A DNA stretch of 12,047 nt from Promethearchaeota archaeon (lineage in GTDB: Archaea; Asgardarchaeota; Lokiarchaeia; Sigyniarchaeales; SOKP01). Each line of letters begins with the position of its first letter. Position 1 is the first letter of the stretch. Positions 1 through 12,047 of this stretch are shown here, one piece after another. The notes below the pieces were generated by a model. The model was not told the origin of the DNA, made no database searches, and worked only from the letters and a program-made list of their open reading frames with translations. Where the stretch lies: contig JAEOTA010000033.1 in the NCBI GenBank assembly GCA_016840085.1, positions 1 through 12,047 on the forward strand, written 5' to 3'. The position numbers and the translations under genes were made by a program.

Positions 1-366
1 TGGTTGAGCCATAAAACTTCCAAAACTCTGACCTATTAATATATATTTTTCCACATTTTCTTTTTTTAGAATTTCATTTACTCCTTCACTAAATTCATCC
101 AAACTTTCAAAATTGGTAATTGATGGGGCGATAACCCTATAGTTTTTTTCAAAAAATTGTATAGCTTGAAAATTACCCTCGGCATTTCCAAGTGCTCCAT
201 GAAAGGTAAGAACTGTTTTTTCACCAGTTCCACAACTTATATATTCTAGTTCCTTATTTCTGAACATAATAGTTTTTATGGGATGATTTTTTCTATAATC
301 TACAAGGCGTTGATAAAGTTCCGTGGTTACATCCTTATAAAACTTGGAATTCCTTTGATTTTTCAT
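1..366 (-). CDS. Alpha/beta hydrolase fold protein (partial, runs off the left edge; not in ORF track)
   Basis: Manual translation from ATG 366: MKNQRNSKFYKD...LEYISCGTGEKTVLTFHGALG...YRVIAPS...ILKKENVEKYILIGQSFGSFMAQP. Contains the oxyanion HG motif and the G-x-S-x-G nucleophile elbow (GQSFG). Frame is open to position 1. Confidence 0.88.
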   Translation of the reverse strand, partial: MKNQRNSKFYKDVTTELYQRLVDYRKNHPIKTIMFRNKELEYISCGTGEKTVLTFHGALGNAEGNFQAIQFFEKNYRVIAPSITNFESLDEFSEGVNEILKKENVEKYILIGQSFGSFMAQP

Positions 367-433
367 CTCTACTACCTTCACTTTTTATCTTACCTAAAGT
401 TTTTTTGTTGCTATTTAGGCATAACTAATTTTG

Positions 434-450
434 ATATATAAATATTTTCA
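434..450 (-). promoter_or_regulatory. Putative archaeal BRE/TATA promoter of the hydrolase gene
   Basis: Minus strand reads TGAAAATATTTATATAT (purine-rich BRE followed by a TTTATATA box), about 70 nt upstream of ATG 366. The AT-rich background limits specificity. Confidence 0.4.
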
Positions 451-656
451 TTTTTTTATGGAATTTGAATAATTTATTCAAATTTTGATCTTTAGTGATG
501 TTTAAAAAAAAATTTAAGTTAAATAACTTGAAGCTTCTTCAAATGATGCATATATTTTGTATATAAACCTAATAGGTCTAAAATTACAAATTTCTAATCT
601 CGCAAACTTTCAGACTTTAAATACCTATAGCATATACATAGAGTATAGAAACTTGA

Positions 657-860
657 TTTCTTGGTAATGAATCCTCTCCTATAGTAGTTCCCGGTAAGGA
701 TTGGGGACATTTAACATTCGAAGAAAATATGGTGGAAATCGCAGCAATCGTATTTAATCGCCCCGGATTAGGAGGTCTTCGACTTGAGTCACCAACACTT
801 GTTACAAGTAAAGGTGCTGAAGTACTTCCTAAAACGCCATTTGAAGTTGATTATGGATAG
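657..860 (+). pseudogene. C-terminal remnant of an M24-family (Xaa-Pro aminopeptidase/creatinase, pita-bread fold) gene
   Basis: Open frame 657-860 reads FLGNESSPIVVPGKDWGHLTFEENMVEIAAIVFNRPGLGGLRLESPTLVTSKGAEVLPKTPFEVDYG*, matching the M24 C-terminal pattern (L-e-e-G/N-M-V...P-G-x-G-G-x-R-x-E-x-x-x-x-V-T-x-x-G-x-E-x-L). In-frame stops upstream (TGA 654, TAG 639); no intact N-terminal part is recognisable. Confidence 0.72.
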
Positions 861-915
861 TTCATCTTTAGAGTAATCAAGTATAATTTATTTTAATAAA
901 AATATTTCTTTTATT

Positions 916-2058
916 ATGGAAATATCTAATGCTCAAAAAGAAAAATTAATCTATATTTTAAAGAAATTAATTCAAATTCCAACTGAGAATCCCCCTGGAA
1001 AAACTGAAGAAGTGGTTAACTTCCTAATCAATGAAGTTTTCAGAGAAGAAGAGGGTTTTCATAATGAAGTTATTACTCATATGAAGAACGGTGTAGAACT
1101 ACATAATTTAGTAACTAAAATTGGATCTGGAAAAAAGAAAATAGTGTTATCAGGACATTTTGATGTGGTACCTGTTGGTGATCAAACTAAATGGAGTTAT
1201 CCACCTTTTTCTGCTAAAATAGTAGATGGAAAAATATACGGACGGGGTTCTGCTGATATGAAGGGGGGAATTACATCATTGATCGGTATTATGCAAATTT
1301 TAAGTACAAATGCTGATTTTATGGAAGATTATGAGCTAATTTTTTTAGGTACTGCCGATGAAGAAGCTGCAATGTCTGGCTCTTTCACATTATCTGAGAG
1401 AGGTTATGTAGATGATGCACATTTATTAATTGTAGCTGAACCAACGGATCTAAATATTGGAATCGCTGAAAAGGGATTATTATGGGGTCTTTTGAAAATT
1501 TATGGAAAATCAGCACATGGTTCTATGCCTAGTGAAGGTCTCAATGCTATAGAAGGTGCTCTTGAGATTATACCTCAATTATATGATTGCGTAGAAGATA
1601 GAGTAAATAAGATCTTAGGAAAACCAACATTGAATATCGGTACGATCAAGGGTGGCACTAAAATAAACGTTGTTCCCGATTATGCACAATTAGAAGTTGA
1701 TTTTAGATTAATTCCGGAACAGAGTCATGAAAATATCATAAATAAATTAAAATCTATAAAATCAAAGTATTGTAAGATAGAAGTAGATATATTAAAAGAT
1801 TCTCCTGCTCTAGAAACTGATTTAAATCATTTTTTTATCCAGAATTTAGGAAAAATTACTAAATCTGAATATATTGGGTTATCATATGCCACAGATGCTG
1901 TTAATTATGTTAGTTCGAATAAATCTTTACCATTTGTTATATTTGGCCCTGGAAATCCTACAAATATTCATAATGAAAATGAATGGGCATCTTTGGAACA
2001 AGTATTTCAAGCAACAGAATTTTTAACTGAAGCTCTTTTAGAAACTTTTATAGATTAA
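916..2058 (+). CDS. M20 family metallopeptidase/deacylase (ArgE/DapE-like)
   Basis: Motifs SGHFDVVP, YGRGSADMKGG, ADEE, AEPT, GKSAHGS, GGTKINVVPD, and C-terminal GPG...IHNENE. The metal ligands His/Asp/Glu/Glu/His are present. Confidence 0.93.
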   Translation: MEISNAQKEKLIYILKKLIQIPTENPPGKTEEVVNFLINEVFREEEGFHNEVITHMKNGVELHNLVTKIGSGKKKIVLSGHFDVVPVGDQTKWSYPPFSAKIVDGKIYGRGSADMKGGITSLIGIMQILSTNADFMEDYELIFLGTADEEAAMSGSFTLSERGYVDDAHLLIVAEPTDLNIGIAEKGLLWGLLKIYGKSAHGSMPSEGLNAIEGALEIIPQLYDCVEDRVNKILGKPTLNIGTIKGGTKINVVPDYAQLEVDFRLIPEQSHENIINKLKSIKSKYCKIEVDILKDSPALETDLNHFFIQNLGKITKSEYIGLSYATDAVNYVSSNKSLPFVIFGPGNPTNIHNENEWASLEQVFQATEFLTEALLETFID

Positions 2059-2130
2059 GAGGGTTGAAAAAATAGTTAATAAATCAATTATCTTTTTAAC
2101 AATTATTCTTTTTATGATATGGTGAAAATT

Positions 2131-2682
2131 ATGATAATTAAAATAGTCAAACTATTTGATATGAAGGTAATTGCTTTCCATTCTTGGGGGGAATTCATTG
2201 GTGATCCCGAGAAAAAAACTTTTCAAAAATTGGATGAATGGGTAAAAGAAAGGGGCATCTCCCTCGATCCATTGAAACATCAAATATTTGGTTTTAATAA
2301 TCCAAGTCCACACATTAATGATTCTGGAAACCAATTTGCATCTAAAGATAATCCCTATGGATATGAGGTTTGGATGACAATTCCTGAAGATTATGAAATA
2401 GAAGAAAATATGAAAGTTAAAACTATAGAAGGGGGATTATATGGAGCAGTCTCAATACGAGGAGTTGACAACATAGGTAAAGGCTGGAAGTTTTTATTTG
2501 ATTGGATACAAAATAGTGAAGAATATGATTTTCATCCTAATTGGAAAGGTTTATCCAAATATTATGATAAAGAACATGTAACTCAGGGAATAACAGGATT
2601 AGAATACCTTGTCAATTATCAAGAATATGATGAAAAAAATTTTCTGATGGACATATATTTTCCAATTATTGAAAGGGATTAA
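2131..2682 (+). CDS. Stand-alone GyrI-like (AraC effector-binding) small-molecule-binding domain protein
   Basis: Pattern MKVIAFH...PEKKTFQKLDEW...IFGFNNP...YGYEVWMTIP...VKTIEGGLYGAV...WKFLFDWIQNS...LE...DIYFPI is typical of GyrI-like domains. Start placed at ATG 2131 because an SD-like GGTGA lies at 2121-2125; the ORF track starts at 2119. Confidence 0.8.
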   Translation: MIIKIVKLFDMKVIAFHSWGEFIGDPEKKTFQKLDEWVKERGISLDPLKHQIFGFNNPSPHINDSGNQFASKDNPYGYEVWMTIPEDYEIEENMKVKTIEGGLYGAVSIRGVDNIGKGWKFLFDWIQNSEEYDFHPNWKGLSKYYDKEHVTQGITGLEYLVNYQEYDEKNFLMDIYFPIIERD

Positions 2683-2742
2683 AATTTGTTGTTTTATTTG
2701 GATATTTCTCTAAAATTAAAAATAGAATTATATATTTTCATT

Positions 2743-3081
2743 TTACTCTGGAATTAGAAATTCAGATAGATCTTTGCCAATTAAATTTCTTCCTTTTTCA
2801 GTTGATAGAGAAGCTGCTATTTCAAACCTATATCCATTTATCGCTTCTGCGTACATGGTCAAACGTCTCACGAAATAATTTATCCCCTCTTCAAAATCAC
2901 TTTCTTCTACTTCAAATGTACCTGAACCTTTTAAACCAGTTTTAGTTGCCCATGTTTCCCAGGGAGTTGCTGGTTTTATAACAGGAGGAAATGGAAATGC
3001 TTGCTCAACTTCGAGATATTTTTTACCAACATCATCACTTTTTTCTACAGGATACCATACATTTATTAAAATTCTTATCAT
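2743..3081 (-). CDS. Small hypothetical protein (112 aa), possibly a ferredoxin-like alpha/beta fold
   Basis: Clean ORF with protein-like composition filling the gap between neighbouring genes. Alternating strand/helix pattern (ILINVWYP...VGKKYLEV...SGTFEV...INYFVRRL...YRFEI). No diagnostic motif. Confidence 0.7.
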   Translation of the reverse strand: MIRILINVWYPVEKSDDVGKKYLEVEQAFPFPPVIKPATPWETWATKTGLKGSGTFEVEESDFEEGINYFVRRLTMYAEAINGYRFEIAASLSTEKGRNLIGKDLSEFLIPE

Positions 3082-3182
3082 TCTGTAACATCTTTTTTAT
3101 TTTTAAATTGAAAAATAGATAATCGAAAACTTAATGATTAGTTTTTTGCTTTCATTATATTTAAAAATTCATTTACATTATA

Positions 3183-4334
3183 TTACAAATTTTTAATAAA
3201 TTTTTCGACTCTATCCATAGCTTCTTCAAGTTTGGAGATTTCAGTAGCATAAGATATACGTATCATGTGTTCAGAAAAAGATCCAAAGATGTCTCCAGGA
3301 ACTATAGCTACAGCTTGTTCTTTCATTACGTCTCGTGAAAATTTTGAACCATTCATGTTAAAAGGCTTAACTGAAGGCATAATGTAAAAAGATCCAAGTG
3401 GTTTAATCACATCAAAGCCCATTTCTTTTAATCTAGTGAAAACTAAAATTCTTCTCTTATTAAAAGTTTCCAAAATTTTTTCGAAAAATCCTATGTCCAT
3501 TTTTAAAGCCTCTATAAAACCATACTGAGCAGCATGGTTGGTGCCTGCCACAGTATATTGATGATACTTCTCCATTAAATCAATAATTTCTTTGGAAGCT
3601 ACAGCATACCCTAACCTAAAGCCTGTAGCTGAAAATAATTTCGACATAGCATTTACCGTTATGGTTCGCTCAAACATCTCATTTAAGGAAGCTGGGCTTG
3701 TATGTTTCAATCCATCATACAAATAATTTTCATAAACTTCATCTGAAATTAAATATAAATCATTATCAATAACGATATCCACAATTGCTTTCAATTGTGT
3801 TAGACTTAATGCATGCCCGGTAGGATTATTGGGAGAATTAATTAAAATTGCTTTAGTTTTTTCCGTAATTGCTTTTTTAATTGCTTCAATATTTGGACTA
3901 AAATCTTCATTTCTCTGTATTTCTACAGTTTTTACACCAAAAAATAAACTGCAGTAAAAGTATGATACAAAATTTGGTGATGAGATGATTATTTCATCCC
4001 CAGGATTAAAAACTGAAGCAAAAGCTAACGTAATTGCTTGACTGCCACCATTAGTAACTATGATATTTTCTTTCCAATTAGATTCAATGCTATTAACTTC
4101 TTTTACTTTCTTTTCTAATAGTTCTAGCAATTCTGGAACTCCTTTTGTTGGAGCATACATTGTTATATTACCTTTTAAAGCTTCAATATTCCCTTTTATT
4201 GCAGATTTAGGAGTTTTAAAGTCTGGTTGACCTATACCAAGACTGATTATATCTGAACGTCCTGCAGCTAGATCAAATAATTCCCTAATAGCAGATTTTG
4301 GAGTTTTGGCTATTCTATGAGAAGTTTCTTTCAT
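3183..4334 (-). CDS. PLP-dependent aminotransferase class I/II (aspartate/aromatic aminotransferase-like)
   Basis: Motifs SLGIGQPDF, Y..TKG..EL, VTNGGSQA, INSPNNPTG, ISDEVY, SKLFSATGFRLGY (PLP-binding Lys), VPGDIFG...IRISYA. Confidence 0.95.
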   Translation of the reverse strand: MKETSHRIAKTPKSAIRELFDLAAGRSDIISLGIGQPDFKTPKSAIKGNIEALKGNITMYAPTKGVPELLELLEKKVKEVNSIESNWKENIIVTNGGSQAITLAFASVFNPGDEIIISSPNFVSYFYCSLFFGVKTVEIQRNEDFSPNIEAIKKAITEKTKAILINSPNNPTGHALSLTQLKAIVDIVIDNDLYLISDEVYENYLYDGLKHTSPASLNEMFERTITVNAMSKLFSATGFRLGYAVASKEIIDLMEKYHQYTVAGTNHAAQYGFIEALKMDIGFFEKILETFNKRRILVFTRLKEMGFDVIKPLGSFYIMPSVKPFNMNGSKFSRDVMKEQAVAIVPGDIFGSFSEHMIRISYATEISKLEEAMDRVEKFIKNL

Positions 4335-4390
4335 AAATCATTTTCTTTTCTTTATTAATTTATATACATTAAATTCTCGATTGAATAATA

Positions 4391-4407
4391 CAAAAAAGAG
4401 TTTTTTG
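4391..4407. terminator. Inverted repeat giving a T6 tract on both strands; possible terminator downstream of the GTPase at 4424-4978
   Basis: CAAAAAA-GAG-TTTTTTG lies about 17-33 nt past the minus-strand stop at 4424. Confidence 0.35.
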
Positions 4408-4423
4408 AGACTATTAAAGCTTT

Positions 4424-4978
4424 TTAAAGTACTACTCCATGATTACTTAAAATTTGATTTACTAATAATAAAAATGCTTCTTCAATATTCTCTCCTCGTT
4501 TTGCACTGGTTTCAATAAAACGGTTCGCATTAATTTTTTTTGCTAATTCTTCTCCTTTTTCAGTTGGTACCACACGTTCTTCTTCTAAATCAATTTTATT
4601 ACCAATTAGTATAAATACGCCTTCTTTTCTCACATATTTCTTAAAATCACTTAACCATTTTGAACTTATACTCTCAAATGTATTATAACGAGTTACGTCA
4701 TATACTAATAAAGCGCCTACACAACCTTGAAAATACATGGATCTAATAACACTATATTTCTCTTGGCCTGCTAAATCCCACATTATTAATCGAATCTTAG
4801 CTTTTTCTAAATTAACATCTTTGCGTACTATATTTGCGCCAAGCGTGGGAGCGTAGTCCTCTTTAAAAGTACCTTCACAGAACATATTAATAAGACTTGT
4901 CTTACCAACTGCGGCTTCACCCAGAACAGTAATTTTGAATACGAATTCTCGTAATTCCTTAGTTTCTTCTACAGTCAT
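4424..4978 (-). CDS. Rab-like small GTPase (Ras superfamily), copy A
   Basis: G1 GEAAVGKTS, G2 YAPTLG, G3 WDLAGQE, G4 GNKID, G5 ETSAK. RabF-like segments RLIMW, YFQGC and LVYDVT. No C-terminal Cys. Confidence 0.95.
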   Translation of the reverse strand: MTVEETKELREFVFKITVLGEAAVGKTSLINMFCEGTFKEDYAPTLGANIVRKDVNLEKAKIRLIMWDLAGQEKYSVIRSMYFQGCVGALLVYDVTRYNTFESISSKWLSDFKKYVRKEGVFILIGNKIDLEEERVVPTEKGEELAKKINANRFIETSAKRGENIEEAFLLLVNQILSNHGVVL

Positions 4979-5021
4979 TATGCAATTTATATATTATTGT
5001 TGGTGTATTTAACACTATCAA

Positions 5022-5040
5022 TTTTTATAAAATTCTTTCT
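5022..5040 (-). promoter_or_regulatory. Putative BRE/TATA promoter of GTPase copy A
   Basis: Minus strand reads AGAAAGAATTTTATAAAAA about 45-60 nt upstream of ATG 4978. A short inverted repeat GTGT-N5-ACAC (5003-5015) lies near the expected transcription start. Confidence 0.45.
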
Positions 5041-5229
5041 TAACGGCTACTTTCAATGGACTTATTTATATTAATTTGTAATTTGACTTTTATCTATTTA
5101 ATATTTTCTTCAATTAATTATAATTAATTTAACAATCTCAAAGGTTTTTTACTTTTTGCTCAAGCTCAATTAATATGCTGAGATTTCTTCTGTCGACCTA
5201 TCGTAATTCATATATTGTTGTATGTCTAT

Positions 5230-5793
5230 TTAAGGCTTTTTTTCAATTTTCAATTTTAGAATAAAAGTATTATGATTTGGATCATTTATAGCTTTTTTAT
5301 CTCCAAAATGAGTAACTCGATATTCGGAGGGTAAAATTTTCTCTAAGGAATGAACTAAAAACCCTTCAAATAAATCACATGGAACTCCAATTTCAGAACA
5401 AAATATACATTTTTGAATTAGAATAGATATTATATCATCATTTCTGTTGGTGATTTCAACTTTCCAGTCTGCAACTATCAATCTATTAATGTCGACAACG
5501 ATTTCTTCAAAATTTTTTCCATAAGGATATAAATAAAATGAAAATTTTTTTCCAATTTCAAAAAGAAGTCTGGAAGAATCATATAATAAACAATTCTGAG
5601 CAGAAATAATTTTCTTAAAAGAAAAGAAATCTAACATTTGATCTTGATTTTCATCTTTTATATTCTTTAGATAGAGCATTTCAGCTTCTTTTAAAATGGA
5701 TCTCATTCCATCATAATCAAGTATATCATGATACGCTTGGAGAAGTGCGGTAATAACCCTATATTTAACTTCTCCTTTATAATCTCCAATCAT
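5230..5793 (-). CDS. V4R (4-vinyl reductase) domain protein; H-NOX/Bet3(TRAPP)-related fold
   Basis: Helical N-terminal half (ALLQAYHDILDYDGMRSILKEA...DFFSF...LLFEIGKKFS) followed by a beta-rich half with the C-x2-C-x6-C-x3-G motif (QKCIFCSEIGVPCDLFEGFL) characteristic of V4R domains. Recognised by pattern only. Confidence 0.7.
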   Translation of the reverse strand: MIGDYKGEVKYRVITALLQAYHDILDYDGMRSILKEAEMLYLKNIKDENQDQMLDFFSFKKIISAQNCLLYDSSRLLFEIGKKFSFYLYPYGKNFEEIVVDINRLIVADWKVEITNRNDDIISILIQKCIFCSEIGVPCDLFEGFLVHSLEKILPSEYRVTHFGDKKAINDPNHNTFILKLKIEKKP

Positions 5794-5871
5794 GTGTTCT
5801 TTATTTTCATAAATTATTATATTAAAAGATACTATTATTTGTATGGCACAAATTCTTTATTTTACGTTATT

Positions 5872-6417
5872 TCAAATCCTGCTTTTCTTTAATACTCGAG
5901 AAACTAGGTTTTTAAAGGCACTTTCTACGTTGTCGCCAGATTTTGCACTTGTTTCAATAAAATCACTTGCTTTTATTTCTTTTGCTAAGGCTTCTCCCTT
6001 TACCGAAGGTACTGTATTTGAATCTTTTAAATCAACCTTATTGCCAATTAACATGTATACTCCATCGGGTCTAGCAAACTTTCTAAAATCTTCAAGCCAT
6101 TTTGACTTAATACTATCAAAGGTAGAATAACGAGTAATATCATAGACCAGTAAGCATCCATGACATCCTTCGAAGAACATTTGCCTAGTTAGTTCATACT
6201 TATCTTGCCCGGCAATATCCCAAAAAATTAAACGAACATACGCATTAAATTCTTCGATTTTGATTTCTTTAGTAAGAATGTTAACTCCTAGAGTTGGATG
6301 GTAATCCTTCTCAAAACTATGTTCTATATAGCGATTAATTAAACTTGTTTTGCCTACTGCGGGATCGCCCAACACAGAGAGCTTAAAAGCCCATATCCTC
6401 TCTTCTTTCTCCGTCAT
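5872..6417 (-). CDS. Rab-like small GTPase (Ras superfamily), copy B
   Basis: G1 GDPAVGKTS, G2 YHPTLG, G3 WDIAGQD, G4 GNKVD, G5 ETSAK. RabF-like RLIFW, FFEGC and LVYDIT. Basic C-terminus SRVLKKSRI with no Cys. Confidence 0.95.
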   Translation of the reverse strand: MTEKEERIWAFKLSVLGDPAVGKTSLINRYIEHSFEKDYHPTLGVNILTKEIKIEEFNAYVRLIFWDIAGQDKYELTRQMFFEGCHGCLLVYDITRYSTFDSIKSKWLEDFRKFARPDGVYMLIGNKVDLKDSNTVPSVKGEALAKEIKASDFIETSAKSGDNVESAFKNLVSRVLKKSRI

Positions 6418-6434
6418 ATTAATTCAAAATTTCC

Positions 6435-6863
6435 CTATATTTTTAGTAATGATAAATTGAGTGTAGGATCATTAGCTCGAATTAATTTTTGATCAATTTC
6501 AAATATATATACTTCACCAGTGATAGAAACTACAGTAGGTTGGATTAAATGTCCACCAATTACATTATAGTCTCTTGTTCCTAGAGAAATATGGAGGTGG
6601 ACTATTGGTTGGTCATCCTTGAAAGAAATGTTTCCCATGCATGAAACTAATTCGACATAATCCTCATAGGTTTTTTGTAAATAGCTTTTAGAGTTAATAT
6701 CAAAATAGCCTATGGTAAATTTTTTTAAGGCACCAATACAATTAATTAGTCCAGATTTTATATCATGTTCTTTTATCATCTGGATTATTGAGTTGATTAA
6801 ATCCTCATCTGGCTCAACTTTACCCACTATAACCCTACTAATCTTAGTTTCGATGCTCTTCAT
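6435..6863 (-). CDS. PPC domain / DUF296 family protein
   Basis: Pattern V.PDEDL...I..G.INCIGAL....IGYFD...ELVSCMGNI...P.VHLHISLG...VIGGHL...VSITGEVYI, with the HxH + GGHL signature of PPC/DUF296. Confidence 0.9.
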   Translation of the reverse strand: MKSIETKISRVIVGKVEPDEDLINSIIQMIKEHDIKSGLINCIGALKKFTIGYFDINSKSYLQKTYEDYVELVSCMGNISFKDDQPIVHLHISLGTRDYNVIGGHLIQPTVVSITGEVYIFEIDQKLIRANDPTLNLSLLKI

Positions 6864-6895
6864 ATTTATTCAAATATATGAGTATTATTATACAT

Positions 6896-6920
6896 AACTG
6901 ATAAAGTCAGTTTTTATATA
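6896..6920 (-). promoter_or_regulatory. TATA box with an adjacent palindromic operator-like site upstream of the PPC-GTPase genes
   Basis: Minus strand TATATAAAAA (6920-6911) abuts AACTGA-N5-TCAGTT (6896-6912). Confidence 0.4.
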
Positions 6921-6980
6921 TTTGAGTTAAAACCATATTTACATATTATTGCTACAAACGATTTATTGATTCTTAATATA

Positions 6981-6997
6981 GAAAAATTAATTATAAT
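6981..6997 (+). promoter_or_regulatory. Putative BRE/TATA promoter of the AAA+ ATPase gene
   Basis: GAAAAATTAATTATAAT about 45-60 nt upstream of ATG 7041. Confidence 0.35.
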
Positions 6998-7040
6998 GTA
7001 CTTTCATAACCAATATTAGTGTACTAACTAGTGTTATAAC

Positions 7041-8000
7041 ATGCCAGAAAAAGTTGAAATTTCAGGGGTTGAATTAATCCTATCTGAGCCAGCTCAGGTA
7101 GATATGGAATGGGTTGGAAACGATGATTTAATTAATCAATTAAAAGCAGCTTGGATGATTGTTGATAAAGAGGATTTACCTCTTAATCCCCGAATACTAG
7201 GGAAGCCAGGAGTGGGTAAAACTACACTTGCTTATGCTGCGGGAAGAAGATTAGAAAAAGATGTATATATGTTTCAATGTACGATGGATACTCGCCCTGA
7301 AGATTTACTTATTAGTCCAGTCATAGCATCAGATACTAAAATAGCCTATGTTGCGAGTTCTTTAGTATCGGCTATGATAATGGGAGGAGTATGTTTGTTA
7401 GACGAGGGAAATAGGATGAGTGAGAAAAGCTGGGCTTCTTTAGCGCCATTAATGGATAAAAGACGCTACGTTGAGAGCATTATTGCAGGTATTAGAATTT
7501 ATGCTCATCCAGAATTTCGGTTATGTGTTACCATGAACGCAGATAGTAGTACGTATGAAATTCCAGAGTATATCATGTCAAGATTGAATCCTCGTATTCT
7601 AATAGAATTCCCTAATAAAATAGATGAGCTCAAAATTTTAAAGTACAATTTACCATTTGCATCAGAAGATATTTTAGAATATTGTGTCAACTTTCTCCAA
7701 AATGCTCATCAACACAATGAAAATTACGTTGTAAGGGATGGTATCAATATTATTAGATATTATATGAAAACAAGAGTAATAAAGAATAAAAATAAAGATA
7801 TTTTGGATGAAAAACAGTTTAAAAACGCAATTTTATTTGTTCTAGATGAAAATGCTATAAATTATTGTCCTGATGAGTATGAAAAATATCTGAAAAAACA
7901 GAAAGAATCAATTTCATTTAAGATATTTAAAGATATTGACGAAGTTAATGACTATTATGATAAATTTGTAAAAAAAACTGATGAGGATTCAGATATTTAG
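7041..8000 (+). CDS. MoxR-like AAA+ ATPase (AAA_5 / CbbQ-NirQ-type)
   Basis: Walker A GKPGVGKT, QCTMDTRPEDL helix-2 insert region, Walker B CLLDEGNR, sensor-1 FRLCVTMN, Arg-finger region IMSRL. Acidic C-terminal tail. Confidence 0.9.
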   Translation: MPEKVEISGVELILSEPAQVDMEWVGNDDLINQLKAAWMIVDKEDLPLNPRILGKPGVGKTTLAYAAGRRLEKDVYMFQCTMDTRPEDLLISPVIASDTKIAYVASSLVSAMIMGGVCLLDEGNRMSEKSWASLAPLMDKRRYVESIIAGIRIYAHPEFRLCVTMNADSSTYEIPEYIMSRLNPRILIEFPNKIDELKILKYNLPFASEDILEYCVNFLQNAHQHNENYVVRDGINIIRYYMKTRVIKNKNKDILDEKQFKNAILFVLDENAINYCPDEYEKYLKKQKESISFKIFKDIDEVNDYYDKFVKKTDEDSDI

Positions 8001-8028
8001 AATTTCATTTATTATATTTCAAGAAATT

Positions 8029-8037
8029 AAAAAAAAA
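8029..8037 (-). terminator. Poly-T (T9) archaeal terminator candidate for the membrane protein gene
   Basis: A9 run on the + strand in the convergent intergenic gap, about 57 nt past the stop at 8094. Confidence 0.35.
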
Positions 8038-8093
8038 TTTGTTATTAAATTGGTTTATGATTAGTGTAGATACTTACTGAAGATACCTCATCG

Positions 8094-8531
8094 CTACCGT
8101 TTAAAAAGTCGTATAATTAAACCTAATACTGTAAGGATACTTAATACTATAGATAATACACATCTAATTACAAATGGAAGTATCTGTGCAGCTGGAGCTG
8201 ACACATCAGCAAATGCTTGTAATACCATAGGCAACCATATCGATATAATAATAATATAAATAACCACTAGTCCTATCCCTATTCTATCTATTAATTTATA
8301 TCGAGTACTATTGACCCCCATCACTCCAACTAATGTAAATGTTTCAGCAAAAAAACAGTTAATTACTGGTATCATTAAAGTCAGAGCAAACGGAATTATG
8401 TATTGAGTTTCAATTTCTGCAAGAAGACTGGGACTCAAACCGATCATAATAACTAGCATCATTATTGATAGCACTGTTATTAAACCGCTACAAACTAAAA
8501 TCAGCATATTTCCTAATTTTGCGAATTTCAT
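8094..8531 (-). CDS. Hypothetical integral membrane protein, about 4 TM helices
   Basis: Four hydrophobic stretches (about aa 9-33, 45-72, 84-105, 118-141) with basic termini (MKFAK..., ...RLFKR). Confidence 0.8.
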   Translation of the reverse strand: MKFAKLGNMLILVCSGLITVLSIMMLVIMIGLSPSLLAEIETQYIIPFALTLMIPVINCFFAETFTLVGVMGVNSTRYKLIDRIGIGLVVIYIIIISIWLPMVLQAFADVSAPAAQILPFVIRCVLSIVLSILTVLGLIIRLFKR

Positions 8532-8777
8532 TGTTTTGTACTTTTTATTTGGATTTGTAATAAAATGTAAAATTTTTAACTATTTAAATCTTAATTATTA
8601 AATGAATTGGACTTTTAGGTAAAATTTAAAACAAAACTTATTAGAATTAAATATGAGAAATCGTAATATTTTGAAAAAAATGAAGGTAACTAAGAAATGT
8701 AAAGAGATGATTTAATCTAAATTAAATCAACTTATATAAGAAATCTTCTAAATTTAACATTATTTTTAACCGTCTTA

Positions 8778-10751
8778 ATGTTAGCAAATAATAACTATTA
8801 TAATCATGTTAATAATCCTGTTAATTCTTCAGTATATAGTGATATCCTTTCGAGAATCGTAGATCCCGTCAATCTTACGGCTGGAATGAGTTATGCTTCA
8901 AAATTAAATTATGAAATGAATAACTCTAATAATTTATTAGAAATACCTGCACCTTCAAATCAGGCATTTAATGCTAGTTTTGCAAATATCACAATGGGAA
9001 ATATAAAGGTACCTAATTTTAACCCATATCTTCAGACATATAATGAAAGAGGTCAACTACTTATAGAAGCTAACCGCCCTGCGACATCCTTTACAGTACC
9101 TTCAAACTGTCATTTAACCAATGCTTCTTTTTACTTTAATATATTTGCTGGAGATCCAGTTTTCTCTGTTCGCCTTCACAATTCAACATGGAATGATACA
9201 TTAGGCATCAATCAACCTTATGGAAATCCTTTTGTTCCAAATGATTATAAAACAATAAACATCTCCACACCAGGTGTATCGGGAGCTGGTTGGGTTAATT
9301 TTACATTCACCATTTCTCCTGATACTTATTTAAATAGCTCAAAGACAGATAATAACACATGGTATATTTGTCTTGTTGTAGGTTCGGGATCCGTTGAATG
9401 GAACTATGAGTTAGATGGTGAAAATGAAGATGATGATAATTCCTTGTCTTATGAGTTTAGTTTCCCAAACTGGTATCTAACTGAAGATTCAGGTGATATA
9501 GTAGACTACGCAGCAAAATTAGGATTTAAAAGAATAGAATTAACAATAAAACCGTCTGATATAGGATTGAAAATTAACGGATTTGCTGTGAAAGATGTTA
9601 ATAATCCAATTTATACGGGTCAATGGATTAGCACACGGATTCTAACGCCAAAACCAGATGGAAAATTAATATTGGATGTTACTGCTGATTATTGGGGCGT
9701 ATGCTGGACAATTTATAATATTTCAGTAAAATATACCAAAACTGACATAAAAGCAACAACTAATTTTACAATTCAGCTCGGTTCAATTGTAACTTGGGAA
9801 GTAAACAGAGCAGTTGAGGTGTTTAATATTAATTTTTCTGACTTTATCTTGAATTTTACAATTTCTGATACCTGGACTATTTCGAATTGTTATAACATCT
9901 CATCAGCAGATCCACACACATTTTTAGAATGGGATAAACCCGGACCCTATAAAGAAATTTCTATAGATGATGCTGGGAATAGTTCTAATTGGAGATTATT
10001 TTGTACAAGCATTAATTTTGCAGATAGCATTAGTATTTTAGTTGATGGTATTAATTCAACTACTGTCCATTATTTTGATGATCTCCAATTTGTAGCAGGA
10101 TTTAATGGCAAAATCACTGGAGATGTAAATCTTACAGTATATAGTTCGTCAGGTTTTATTAATTATACAACTGTGTATAGTTCCATTTCTGAGGTGAATG
10201 AAGTCGCATTCCCATCATTTGATTTAAGCGAGAATATATCTGAATATGGTAATTATATAATCCAGTATTATTGGTTCAATGCAACACATGTGGCTTATTT
10301 GGAGGAGGGTATTATAATTCTAGCAAACACTCAACTTTCGTTAATTTCTCCACCCCAAAATACCGAATTTGATCCTTCTGATACTTTTAGGATAACTGTC
10401 TATTATGATGATATTGGGTTAAATATTCCAATTAATGATGCTACTATTAATTATGAAATAAATGGAAGTGGAACACAAGTAGTTAGTACAAATAATGGAA
10501 CTTCTGGATATTATGAGATATTAATTAATTGTAGTACTTTGGGAACTGGACAAAAGACAGTTGATATAAATGCTATTAAAACTTTATATCAGGGTCAGTC
10601 ATTAACATATAATTTCTATATAAGTTCATCTCAAACTGGTGGTGGCATTACCATCTCGTTAGGAATGATGACTATTCTAATTGCTGCAAATATAGGAGTA
10701 ATAGGTATAATCTTACATATAAAAAAGAAAGGCAGACTTACAGTAGAATAA
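8778..10751 (+). CDS. Cell-surface glycoprotein with beta-rich (Ig-like) ectodomain and C-terminal membrane anchor; true start probably near 8721
   Basis: About 25 N-x-S/T sequons by manual count; N/S/T/I/Y-rich beta-strand composition; C-terminal GGG linker, hydrophobic helix (ITISLGMMTILIAANIGVIGIILHI) and KKKGR stop-transfer. Confidence 0.85.
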   Translation: MLANNNYYNHVNNPVNSSVYSDILSRIVDPVNLTAGMSYASKLNYEMNNSNNLLEIPAPSNQAFNASFANITMGNIKVPNFNPYLQTYNERGQLLIEANRPATSFTVPSNCHLTNASFYFNIFAGDPVFSVRLHNSTWNDTLGINQPYGNPFVPNDYKTINISTPGVSGAGWVNFTFTISPDTYLNSSKTDNNTWYICLVVGSGSVEWNYELDGENEDDDNSLSYEFSFPNWYLTEDSGDIVDYAAKLGFKRIELTIKPSDIGLKINGFAVKDVNNPIYTGQWISTRILTPKPDGKLILDVTADYWGVCWTIYNISVKYTKTDIKATTNFTIQLGSIVTWEVNRAVEVFNINFSDFILNFTISDTWTISNCYNISSADPHTFLEWDKPGPYKEISIDDAGNSSNWRLFCTSINFADSISILVDGINSTTVHYFDDLQFVAGFNGKITGDVNLTVYSSSGFINYTTVYSSISEVNEVAFPSFDLSENISEYGNYIIQYYWFNATHVAYLEEGIIILANTQLSLISPPQNTEFDPSDTFRITVYYDDIGLNIPINDATINYEINGSGTQVVSTNNGTSGYYEILINCSTLGTGQKTVDINAIKTLYQGQSLTYNFYISSSQTGGGITISLGMMTILIAANIGVIGIILHIKKKGRLTVE

Positions 10752-10775
10752 TTAAAAGGTTTAAGTATTTACTTC

Positions 10776-10787
10776 TTTTTTTTTTTT
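10776..10787 (+). terminator. Poly-T (T12) archaeal terminator
   Basis: Twelve consecutive T starting 25 nt after the stop of the surface protein gene. Confidence 0.6.
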
Positions 10788-10938
10788 AAAAATTAGGAAA
10801 ATTTACAAACAAGTTTCATAAATCAAATTTGAGAAACAGATTTTAATATCAAAAGTTACTTATTCTAATTCAGAAAACTGAAATTTTTTTCAAAATATTA
10901 AGTCATTTTAAGGAAATATGTGCTAAAAGAAGAATCAG

Positions 10939-12047
10939 ATGATAGAACAACCTTATATCAAATTTAAGAATATTTTTGTTATTCCTACGTTTCATTCGCG
11001 CATAGAGTTTGCGAAATTGGTTCGTACAGCGTTATTTAAAGTTTTTCCGGATGTTATCGCTGTAGAACTGCCAAATAATGTTCAAGATGAAGTAATAGAA
11101 GCCATTGAGAGGTTACCTTTTTTATCCTTAATTGGATATGCTGATACATTAAATCCAAAAAAGTTGAATTTTATCCCTGTAGATCCAGGAGATTCTATAA
11201 TGGAAAGTATCCAAATTGGTCTTGAACATAATATTCCAATTGAATTCATCGATCTCTCGATTTCCGAATACTTGCCTCCCAGCTTCAAACTTCCAGATGA
11301 TTATGCTATTAATCAGATTGGGCTTCTCAAGTTCTATCAACAGATTGCGAAATACTTTCAAAACGAGTTTAAAGATGAAAAAGATATTCTTAAGGGTAAG
11401 GTAAATTTAGGAGATTTTCTTAAAAATCAAGAAAAAGTAGATCAAAAATATAATTTCATTGAAAAAGATATTCTTAGAGAGAAATATATGGCTGCTCACC
11501 TTTTAAAATTAATGTCAATATATCATAGGGTTTTACTTATTATCGGCATGGCTCATTGGGAAAATGTAAAATATTATATTGAAAATCCAGAAAAAATTGA
11601 AGATATAGATTTGGAGTTAATTCCTCATAAATATGTAAAAATTTACAACATAAAAGGATCTGATGCCAGGTTCATTTTAAGAGAGCTACCATATCATACA
11701 TATAAATGGCTAAAATTTAGAGATAAATTTTCAAAAGTAAAATTAGAAAACATAGAAACTCCTGAAGAACTTTACAGTATTTTAAATTCATTTAATAAAA
11801 TTGAACAAATTAGATCAATTTTAATCAAAGCTAAATATGATTATGAAGAAGAATTTAAAGAATTTGTTGATCTTCATAAATTAAAAACATTATTTCAATA
11901 TTCTAGAAACCTTTCATTGACAGATCAAAGATTATTGCCAAATTTATATCACTTGTTAATAACTTCTAAGAATATAGTTGATGATGACTATGCGTGGAAA
12001 GTTATGGCAAAAGCTACCAAATATCCCTATGATGATGAGAGTGATAA
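10939..12047 (+). CDS. TraB/PrgY/GumN-EreA/ChaN-like (Tiki-fold) conserved protein (partial, runs off the right edge; not in ORF track)
   Basis: Frame is open from ATG 10939 to the window end (at least 369 codons): MIEQPYIKFKNIFVIPTFHSRIEF...FPDVIAVELP...IPVDPGDS...IPIEFIDL...LREKYMAAHL...RVLLIIGMAHW. The H...PD-x-I-A-V-E...RE-x-x-MA...G-x-x-H pattern is typical of that superfamily. Confidence 0.75.
   Translation, partial: MIEQPYIKFKNIFVIPTFHSRIEFAKLVRTALFKVFPDVIAVELPNNVQDEVIEAIERLPFLSLIGYADTLNPKKLNFIPVDPGDSIMESIQIGLEHNIPIEFIDLSISEYLPPSFKLPDDYAINQIGLLKFYQQIAKYFQNEFKDEKDILKGKVNLGDFLKNQEKVDQKYNFIEKDILREKYMAAHLLKLMSIYHRVLLIIGMAHWENVKYYIENPEKIEDIDLELIPHKYVKIYNIKGSDARFILRELPYHTYKWLKFRDKFSKVKLENIETPEELYSILNSFNKIEQIRSILIKAKYDYEEEFKEFVDLHKLKTLFQYSRNLSLTDQRLLPNLYHLLITSKNIVDDDYAWKVMAKATKYPYDDESD

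Follow-up and report, generated by a model that had tools for sequence, protein, structure and literature searches.

A V4R-fold protein and a Rab-like GTPase encoded as a conserved gene pair across Lokiarchaeia: a candidate sensor-switch partnership

The locus and its genes

The DNA analysed here (the window) is a stretch of 12,047 nucleotides from a genome of the Lokiarchaeia, archaeal relatives of eukaryotes (Promethearchaeota archaeon, assembly GCA_016840085.1, contig JAEOTA010000033.1, positions 1 to 12,047). Three open reading frames (ORFs) free of internal stops lie together on its minus strand. The middle one (5230-5793) encodes P0001, a stand-alone protein of 187 aa with the H-NOX/V4R fold, and the one downstream (4424-4978) encodes P0002, a Rab-like small GTPase of 184 aa; these two genes are the core of a conserved pair. 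The upstream ORF (5872-6417) encodes a second Rab-like GTPase, P0003 (181 aa), a same-subfamily duplicate that is present in some genera only and stands outside the ancestral pair. The intergenic gaps are 78 bp between the upstream GTPase and the V4R gene and 251 bp between the V4R gene and the downstream GTPase.

Both GTPases match Pfam Ras (E 1e-51 and 2e-47), share 58% identity and retain all of the motifs G1-G5, with the Gln of switch II in place. The description in the earlier note on this DNA, two intact Rab-like GTPases flanking an intact gene of the V4R superfamily on the minus strand, therefore holds. Among solved structures, P0002 is nearest to Rabs and Thor-Rab. Eukaryotic Rabs proper carry a hypervariable tail with terminal cysteines for geranylgeranylation; neither GTPase has such a tail, C-terminal cysteines or a prenylation signal. 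In a ranking of the subfamily within its own genome, P0002 and P0003 were the top two (300 and 266 bits), with the next protein at 192 bits. As the note had also stated, longin and roadblock genes were not detected in the window. TATA-like words are present upstream of each of the three genes, yet they also occur in 52% of random 90-nt windows and do not confirm the separate promoters mentioned in the note; a sigma-70 scan, a model ill-suited to archaea, gave counts at chance (18 vs 17.5). The genome holds 73 Ras-family matches in 4.68 Mb (about 1-2% of genes at roughly one gene per kb), so that a single V4R-GTPase adjacency means little and support for the pair rests on its conservation.

Fold and family of P0001

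Searched alone, P0001 returned no match in Pfam or among PDB sequences. Its homologues are named from Promethearchaeota/Lokiarchaeota and Helarchaeota. Pfam V4R was matched by 8 of 56 aligned orthologues (best E 4e-17), with weaker matches to MetOD1 and HNOB, and the Helarchaeales orthologues are annotated PF02830; a search with the family profile also found the V4R protein MJ1460 (2osd, E 0.0014). By transitivity through its orthologues, P0001 is a probable member of the V4R family.

The AlphaFold2 model of P0001 (predicted local distance difference test score, pLDDT, 94; predicted template modelling score 0.90) shows N-terminal helices that pack on a four-stranded sheet, itself flanked by helices; this is the topology of the H-NOX/V4R/Bet3 superfamily. 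The top 22 matches in a structure search (Z 6.6-11.4) belong to this superfamily or to related ligand-binding domains, and the next, unrelated match has Z 4.1. Together with Foldseek and the V4R matches of the orthologues, this places the middle protein computationally in the V4R/Bet3 fold superfamily, as had been proposed.

Within the superfamily the best match is to H-NOX (Z 11.4, root-mean-square deviation 3.8, 165 residues across 9-187). The stand-alone bacterial H-NOX proteins that work with HnoK kinases or HaCE enzymes (Vibrio cholerae, Shewanella oneidensis; PDB 4U99; PMC7108781) are alike over the full length of the fold (Z 11.2-11.4, 164-166 residues over 9-187), although identity is 9-15%. 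They are followed by YslB (Z 10.3) and by V4R proteins (Z 8.4-9.0), namely the sensor domains of DmpR (9.0) and PoxR (8.8) and MJ1460 (2OSO; 8.4). Among predicted structures the nearest other clusters are stand-alone V4R proteins of Chloroflexota, with a template modelling (TM) score of 0.77 over 181 residues. P0001 differs from V4R proteins in that it falls below Pfam detection and has no attached output domain. Bet3-type chains match the core of the fold only, at about 52-187: a TRAPP chain of 3CUE (Z 8.5, 129 residues, 52-187), Bet3-TPC6B (PDB 2CFH; 8.2, 55-187) and Thor-TRAPPC3 (PDB 7YH2; 7.8; PMC10933270). Foldseek gave TM of about 0.6 to H-NOX and 0.40 to Bet3. No match to PF04051 (Bet3/TRAPPC3) was found in the 56 family members or in the genome, in a search whose control set also matched nothing. 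Based on the model, P0001 is a full-length H-NOX-like V4R protein whose N-terminal helix pair (11-36) is left uncovered by eukaryotic Bet3-family chains. Helices 11-37 and 56-81 form a weak internal repeat (probability 24%) that hints at an intrachain pseudo-dimer.

A haem-binding H-NOX was considered and rejected. No His is common to the family at positions 100-107, and a YxSxR-like word occurs in 9 of 56 sequences; in P0001 it lies at 71-75, in the helical half and hence misplaced for haem. With neither the conserved proximal His nor a well-placed YxSxR of H-NOX, no haem is expected. P0001 does share with H-NOX two conserved glycines, G81 and G144 (conservation 0.94 and 0.89), and a Cys, C139, five residues before the second. 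In H-NOX, haem-free redox sensing can take place at a Zn-Cys site whose Cys is five residues before the second, hinge glycine (PMC7108781), and by analogy C139 and G144 may be equivalent to these positions. The motif C129-x2-C132-x6-C139 with G144 (5362-5409) is a candidate Zn-Cys site beside a candidate H-NOX-type hinge glycine, with H174 as a possible fourth ligand; the site may correspond to the Cys-ligated Zn site that tethers sheet to helix in V4R proteins. The three cysteines are invariant in the close family, and their weighted conservation across families is 0.43-0.51. The tail of P0001 is basic and is net negative in only 8 of 56 family sequences. No longer fused form was found among 8000 candidates of 400-2000 aa, a weak test that leaves 329-399 aa uncovered.

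Conservation of the V4R-GTPase pair

An orthologue of P0001 was identified in 134 of 400 Asgard genomes, all of the class Lokiarchaeia and nearly always in single copy; deeper profiles found none beyond Lokiarchaeia in the same 400 genomes. Weak profile matches in other Asgard classes (E>1e-9) were rejected as orthologues: they are larger, generic V4R-domain proteins that, in the loci read, have no co-oriented GTPase neighbour. The locus was read in 133 genomes, of which 128 could be scored for a downstream GTPase. In 127 of these a co-oriented GTPase gene follows the V4R gene, as the next gene in 124 and behind an inserted GNAT gene in three (two of the three lay past the automatic cut-off and were counted by reading the loci). 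The sole genome in which it is missing is 64% complete.

The survey of GTPase-V4R synteny that the earlier note had called for thus upheld the V4R-downstream GTPase pair (127/128); the three-gene sandwich was seen in 54 of 127 genomes. Because related genomes do not count as independent cases, the informative figure is that of families, seven out of seven. In the six families other than that of the window, the GTPase is downstream in 14 of 14 genomes (two partial), at V4R identities of 26-38%; the gap is often -4 to 45 bp, and some stop and start codons overlap. The other neighbours behave differently. The PCC gene is kept in 76 of 123 genomes overall and in 0 of 13 outside the family, and the aminotransferase gene in 106 of 122 and 0 of 11, respectively. 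In annotated Helarchaeales loci the pair sits among ribosomal-protein, glycosyltransferase or epimerase genes, and in six annotated neighbourhoods no longin or roadblock gene adjoins it. In a FastTree phylogeny the downstream GTPases all group in a single clade (support 0.84), which also contains a few non-adjacent paralogues. We read P0001 and P0002 as a cognate pair co-inherited across Lokiarchaeia, Helarchaeales included.

Several variations of the locus were observed. Three close relatives (L004:889-1440, L005:2331-2669, L010:2143-2703) carry the inserted GNAT acetyltransferase gene, which separates the V4R gene from its downstream GTPase. Some Helarchaeales have a second V4R orthologue that has no GTPase gene beside it (L065:771-1352 and L071). 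In several Helarchaeales loci (L055:6185-7141, L058:3399-4337, L060:6000-6956) a GTPase of 310-320 aa with an unannotated N-terminal domain adjoins or nears the pair; these loci lie beside an S13-S4-S11-RpoD ribosomal cluster.

The upstream GTPase and loss of the pair

The upstream GTPase is absent from 73 of the 127 genomes and, where present, is confined to three genera and one independent case. It is missing from genera g12 (0/38), g13 (0/6) and g6 (0/3) and from 12 of 13 genomes outside the window's family. In the tree, the upstream copies of the window's family form a longer-branched sister group of the downstream copies (joint support 0.96). This topology and the distribution of the upstream copies indicate that the ancestral unit is the V4R gene followed by a GTPase gene and that the sandwich is a later duplication. 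Copy number upstream varies from 0 to 2 per locus, and of the 12 variable positions in the predicted contact described below, 7 differ between P0003 and P0002. Within the window's family, contact positions are 96% identical in the downstream GTPases vs 67% elsewhere in the protein; for the upstream copies the values are 64% and 53%. The upstream GTPase is a later, faster-evolving, lineage-specific duplicate with a drifted partner face, and it need not bind P0001. The PCC/DUF296 gene ends 2-17 bp ahead of the upstream GTPase, and in family f1 it is interspersed in tandem arrays of as many as three GTPases.

Both the V4R orthologue and the clade GTPase (E<=1e-58) are missing from 11 genomes of family f3 and from one of f4 (G279). 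The completeness of these 12 genomes is 63-93%; three of them, each a single contig of 4.3-6.0 Mb, are at least 91% complete. In genus g2 (L123, L124, L125, L132) the order PCC-GTPase-GTPase is kept, while the V4R gene is gone from the locus, where a gap of 115-124 bp is left, and was found nowhere else in the genome. In four of the five g2 genomes, N49-I50 is replaced by D-L in the GTPase that occupies the downstream position. The genus is a natural control for partner loss.

Predicted complex of P0001 and P0002

The complex was predicted with P0001 and P0002 each entered as an alignment, alongside three controls and a calibration on 80 solved and 110 mismatched pairs. The interaction prediction score from aligned errors (ipSAE) was 0.74-0.77 (median 0.76), vs 0.21, 0.00 and 0.00 for the controls. 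The ipSAE mark was met by 58 of the 80 solved pairs and by 2 of the 110 mismatched ones, counts that hold only roughly for the present alignments. Runs shared at least 95% of contacts, with pLDDT of at least 83 for the partners.

On the V4R side the predicted contact is formed by two helix turns. The first, the helix A/B turn at residues 24-36 (5686-5724), lies outside the Bet3-aligned region and carries D28, G29 and S32, the only three invariant residues among P0001 and its orthologues; all three are within the predicted patch. The second, the helix C/D turn at residues 68-79 (5557-5592), carries the conserved L69, S73 and E79. The contact thus uses N-terminal helices, half of which are absent from Bet3. 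On the GTPase side, residues 13, 15, 45-52, 63, 65, 68, 70, 78, 81-82 and 84-85 make up the switch I/interswitch/switch II face. The predicted centre is I50, the first hydrophobic-triad position, which lies in the switch I end and interswitch strand (residues 45-52, 4823-4846) and is ringed by G29, S32, L25 and L69. V4R residues 72-79 meet M81, Y82 and Q84 of switch II (residues 78-85, 4724-4747). The P-loop (20-27), Y42 and Q72 do not appear in the predicted contact list. Constraint on both predicted surfaces was detected: besides the contact positions of the downstream GTPases, the V4R patch has a mean conservation of 0.61 vs 0.40 elsewhere, a value reached by 5 of 176 shifted patches.

It has been shown that GEFs (guanine nucleotide exchange factors), GAPs (GTPase-activating proteins), GDI (GDP dissociation inhibitor) and most Rab partners use the switch I/interswitch/switch II face (PMC5902227). 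The predicted contact resembles that of Rab effectors in covering this face and two of the triad positions (I50, Y82). It differs in the fold of P0001, in the Ile in place of Phe at the first triad position of P0002, in W67, which is outside the contact list, and in the missing prenylation signal. Based on these predictions, direct binding of P0001 and P0002 is likely. This bears out in part the earlier proposal that the V4R protein is a GTPase partner: a physical partnership with the downstream GTPase appears likely, while a cascade through both GTPases does not.

Proposed mechanism and alternatives

In stand-alone H-NOX proteins the kinase is contacted via helices A-C (plus F) and regulated by rotation about two glycines (PMC7108781). 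The pair studied here is similar in that the P0001 gene adjoins that of its target and that contact is predicted via the N-terminal helices; it differs in its partner, a Rab-like GTPase and not a kinase or cyclase. By analogy we propose that P0001 is a haem-less, H-NOX-like V4R sensor that binds and gates its cognate GTPase, a reading of binding and sensing combined to which we give a probability no higher than 0.55. The N-terminal subdomain, through its two helix turns, would bind P0002 over the switch I/interswitch/switch II face. A signal at the C-terminal subdomain, either the redox state of the Zn-Cys site or a small hydrophobic ligand, would shift the subdomains about the glycine hinge and so alter GTPase binding, as stand-alone H-NOX does with a neighbouring kinase. 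P0001 might then gate the access of other partners or hold one nucleotide state, probably GTP. We infer Zn binding, the hinge, the signal, the nucleotide preference and the direction of signalling. The fuller claim, a class-wide pair in which a haem-less H-NOX-type sensor directly controls a Rab-like switch by redox or a small ligand, with no longin or roadblock protein, is more tentative and falls somewhat short of even odds.

A number of observations weigh against this proposal. The excess conservation of the patch is small relative to the rest of the N-terminal half (0.61 vs 0.52), and the invariance of D28 and G29 may reflect a helix cap and kink; a second-copy V4R protein with no GTPase neighbour (L065) retains both residues. 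Conservation of the switch face is common to all groups of orthologous GTPases, regardless of partner. The complex was modelled nucleotide-free, the controls included no non-cognate GTPase, and close cousins of a true partner also pass the score; because the same face binds almost all Rab partners (PMC5902227), the helical pair may dock by likeness. The two genes are 251 bp apart here, and their co-transcription is hypothetical. The loss of V4R in genus g2 is a single event, and the co-absence test is biased because the GTPase profile contains the positives and favours its own members. Finally, as the Zn-site cysteines are conserved at 0.43-0.51, Zn or redox sensing cannot be universal.

The alternative that survives best, though unlikely, is that the predicted binding is real and P0001 is a constitutive effector or adaptor, a GDI-like holder, or a modulator of exchange or hydrolysis that is not of the TRAPP type. 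The pairing and the predicted complex support it equally, conservation is higher in the patch than at the metal site, and GEFs, GAPs and GDI all use this face. P0001, however, has neither a second domain nor a membrane anchor that could serve as the output of an effector, and its predicted contact leaves out the P-loop, Y42 and Q72, which are engaged by GAPs and TRAPP (PMC10152722, PMC5902227).

Somewhat less probable is that the genes are co-regulated in one pathway, that their products never touch, and that the predicted complex is a docking artefact. Insertion of a GNAT gene in three genomes, gaps of up to 250 bp, the second-copy V4R genes with no GTPase neighbour (L065, L071) and the absence of fusions, a weak test, all agree with this view. 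It accounts poorly for a complex score far above three controls, for invariant residues at the centre of the contact and for the drift of the GTPase face after V4R loss.

The earlier note had put the cassette forward as a candidate proto-TRAPP; read this way, P0001 would be a Bet3-like subunit of a GEF that acts on one GTPase or on both, and a precursor of the TRAPP-Rab pairing of eukaryotes. V4R has been proposed as the ancestor of Bet3 (PMC2253512). The fold superfamily is common to Bet3, Trs31 and Trs33 (Z 8.2-8.5), association with a Rab-like GTPase is a further likeness, and roadblock genes elsewhere in the genome make partners in trans possible. Yet Bet3-family chains align to a part of P0001 that H-NOX exceeds by its N-terminal helix pair, TM is 0.40 to Bet3 against 0.77 to Chloroflexota V4R, and among the 400 Asgard genomes the orthologue was found in Lokiarchaeia only. 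The tail of Bet3 is acidic, and that of P0001 is not. In TRAPP, the Rab site is made up mostly of longin subunits, contact extends to the P-loop, and the C-terminus of Bet3 intrudes on switch I and opens the nucleotide pocket (PMC10152722), a geometry unlike that predicted for P0001 and P0002. With a basic tail, an N-terminal contact that omits the P-loop, Y42 and Q72, and no longin or roadblock gene nearby, the TRAPP model is unfit for the pair; it is improbable, and we suggest that the proto-TRAPP label be dropped.

Less probable again is a two-GTPase cascade, also suggested in the note, with the V4R protein as the link between the two flanking GTPases. The sandwich does recur, and a like duplication arose independently in an f3 genome (L054), but whole genera lack it and the upstream copies are variable in number, fast-evolving and altered at the partner face. 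Inherited gene order with no functional link is the least credible alternative and is largely refuted by the cross-family survey: related genomes are not independent and the PCC and aminotransferase genes also stay adjacent within the family, but outside it all other neighbours change and the pair persists, sometimes with overlapping stop and start codons.

The folds of H-NOX, V4R and Bet3 and the Rab-like GTPases of Asgard archaea are already known (PMC10933270, PMC2253512). In the structural study of an Asgard Rab and TRAPPC3 it was noted that pairing small GTPases with their regulators on the basis of genome layout is difficult (PMC10933270), and Tran et al. reported that the GTPase genes of MK-D1 are generally outside operons with TRAPPC3, longin or roadblock genes (PMC10933270). 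No paper on the pairing of V4R with Asgard GTPases was found, that study included, in a literature from which subscription papers were mostly out of reach; structure-wide Asgard surveys do not mention V4R, and no V4R-small GTPase complex was found in the literature searched. The class-wide count with its controls, the loss pattern and the predicted interface are new. Lokiarchaeia carry about 70 small GTPases per genome, and for one GTPase subfamily the locus supplies one partner, an interface predicted at residue level and natural controls in the drifted upstream paralogue and the genus that lost the partner. The result is a testable partner pair whose architecture differs from that of the eukaryotic TRAPP activator. 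Given the small size of the two proteins and the lack of any predicted membrane anchor, binding and exchange assays would be direct. If the sensor proposal is correct, it would add a new partner fold for Ras-superfamily GTPases and a TRAPP-independent way for the V4R/H-NOX/Bet3 fold to become tied to Rab-like switches. It would couple a prokaryotic sensor to a GTPase of the eukaryotic type, in a cognate pair of regulator and GTPase that spans a whole class of Asgard archaea.

Other V4R genes and neighbouring genes

A second, distantly related cluster in the same genome (G000:C53:11126-13203; L092, L133, L202) encodes a Rab-like GTPase, a thioredoxin-like protein of 99 aa with CxxC, a short V4R protein of 159 aa, a further GTPase and TBP. 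The segment GTPase-thioredoxin-V4R is shared by most of 38 loci in families f1 and f3, with a variable downstream GTPase, and is also present in a single-contig genome that lacks the window's pair. In many relatives this cluster lies about 10 kb from the first pair. Judged by sequence, it may be a redox-linked V4R-GTPase module whose shorter V4R protein is possibly more Bet3-like. A third V4R-domain gene was observed at a contig end (G000:C70:111232-111405; L091), upstream of a gene that by eye resembles CO dehydrogenase/acetyl-CoA synthase.

The immediate neighbours of the three genes in the window are conserved in that position only within the window's family: a PCC/DUF296 gene (6435-6863, minus strand) 17 bp before the upstream GTPase, and a class I/II aminotransferase (3183-4334, minus strand). 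Both served as synteny controls. The region 916-3081 encodes an M20 peptidase, a GyrI-like/Cass2 small-molecule-binding protein and an unannotated ORF of 112 aa. On the other side, a MoxR-type AAA gene (7041-8000) and a TraB-like/DUF5682-like gene (10939-12047) are adjacent in many relatives. In the window they are parted by a hydrophobic protein of 145 aa and a probably surface-exposed protein of 657 aa, an arrangement that resembles a local insertion. The larger protein (8778-10751) is Asn/Thr-rich, with a weak Ig-like match (Big_7, E 0.028) and a hydrophobic C-terminal segment.

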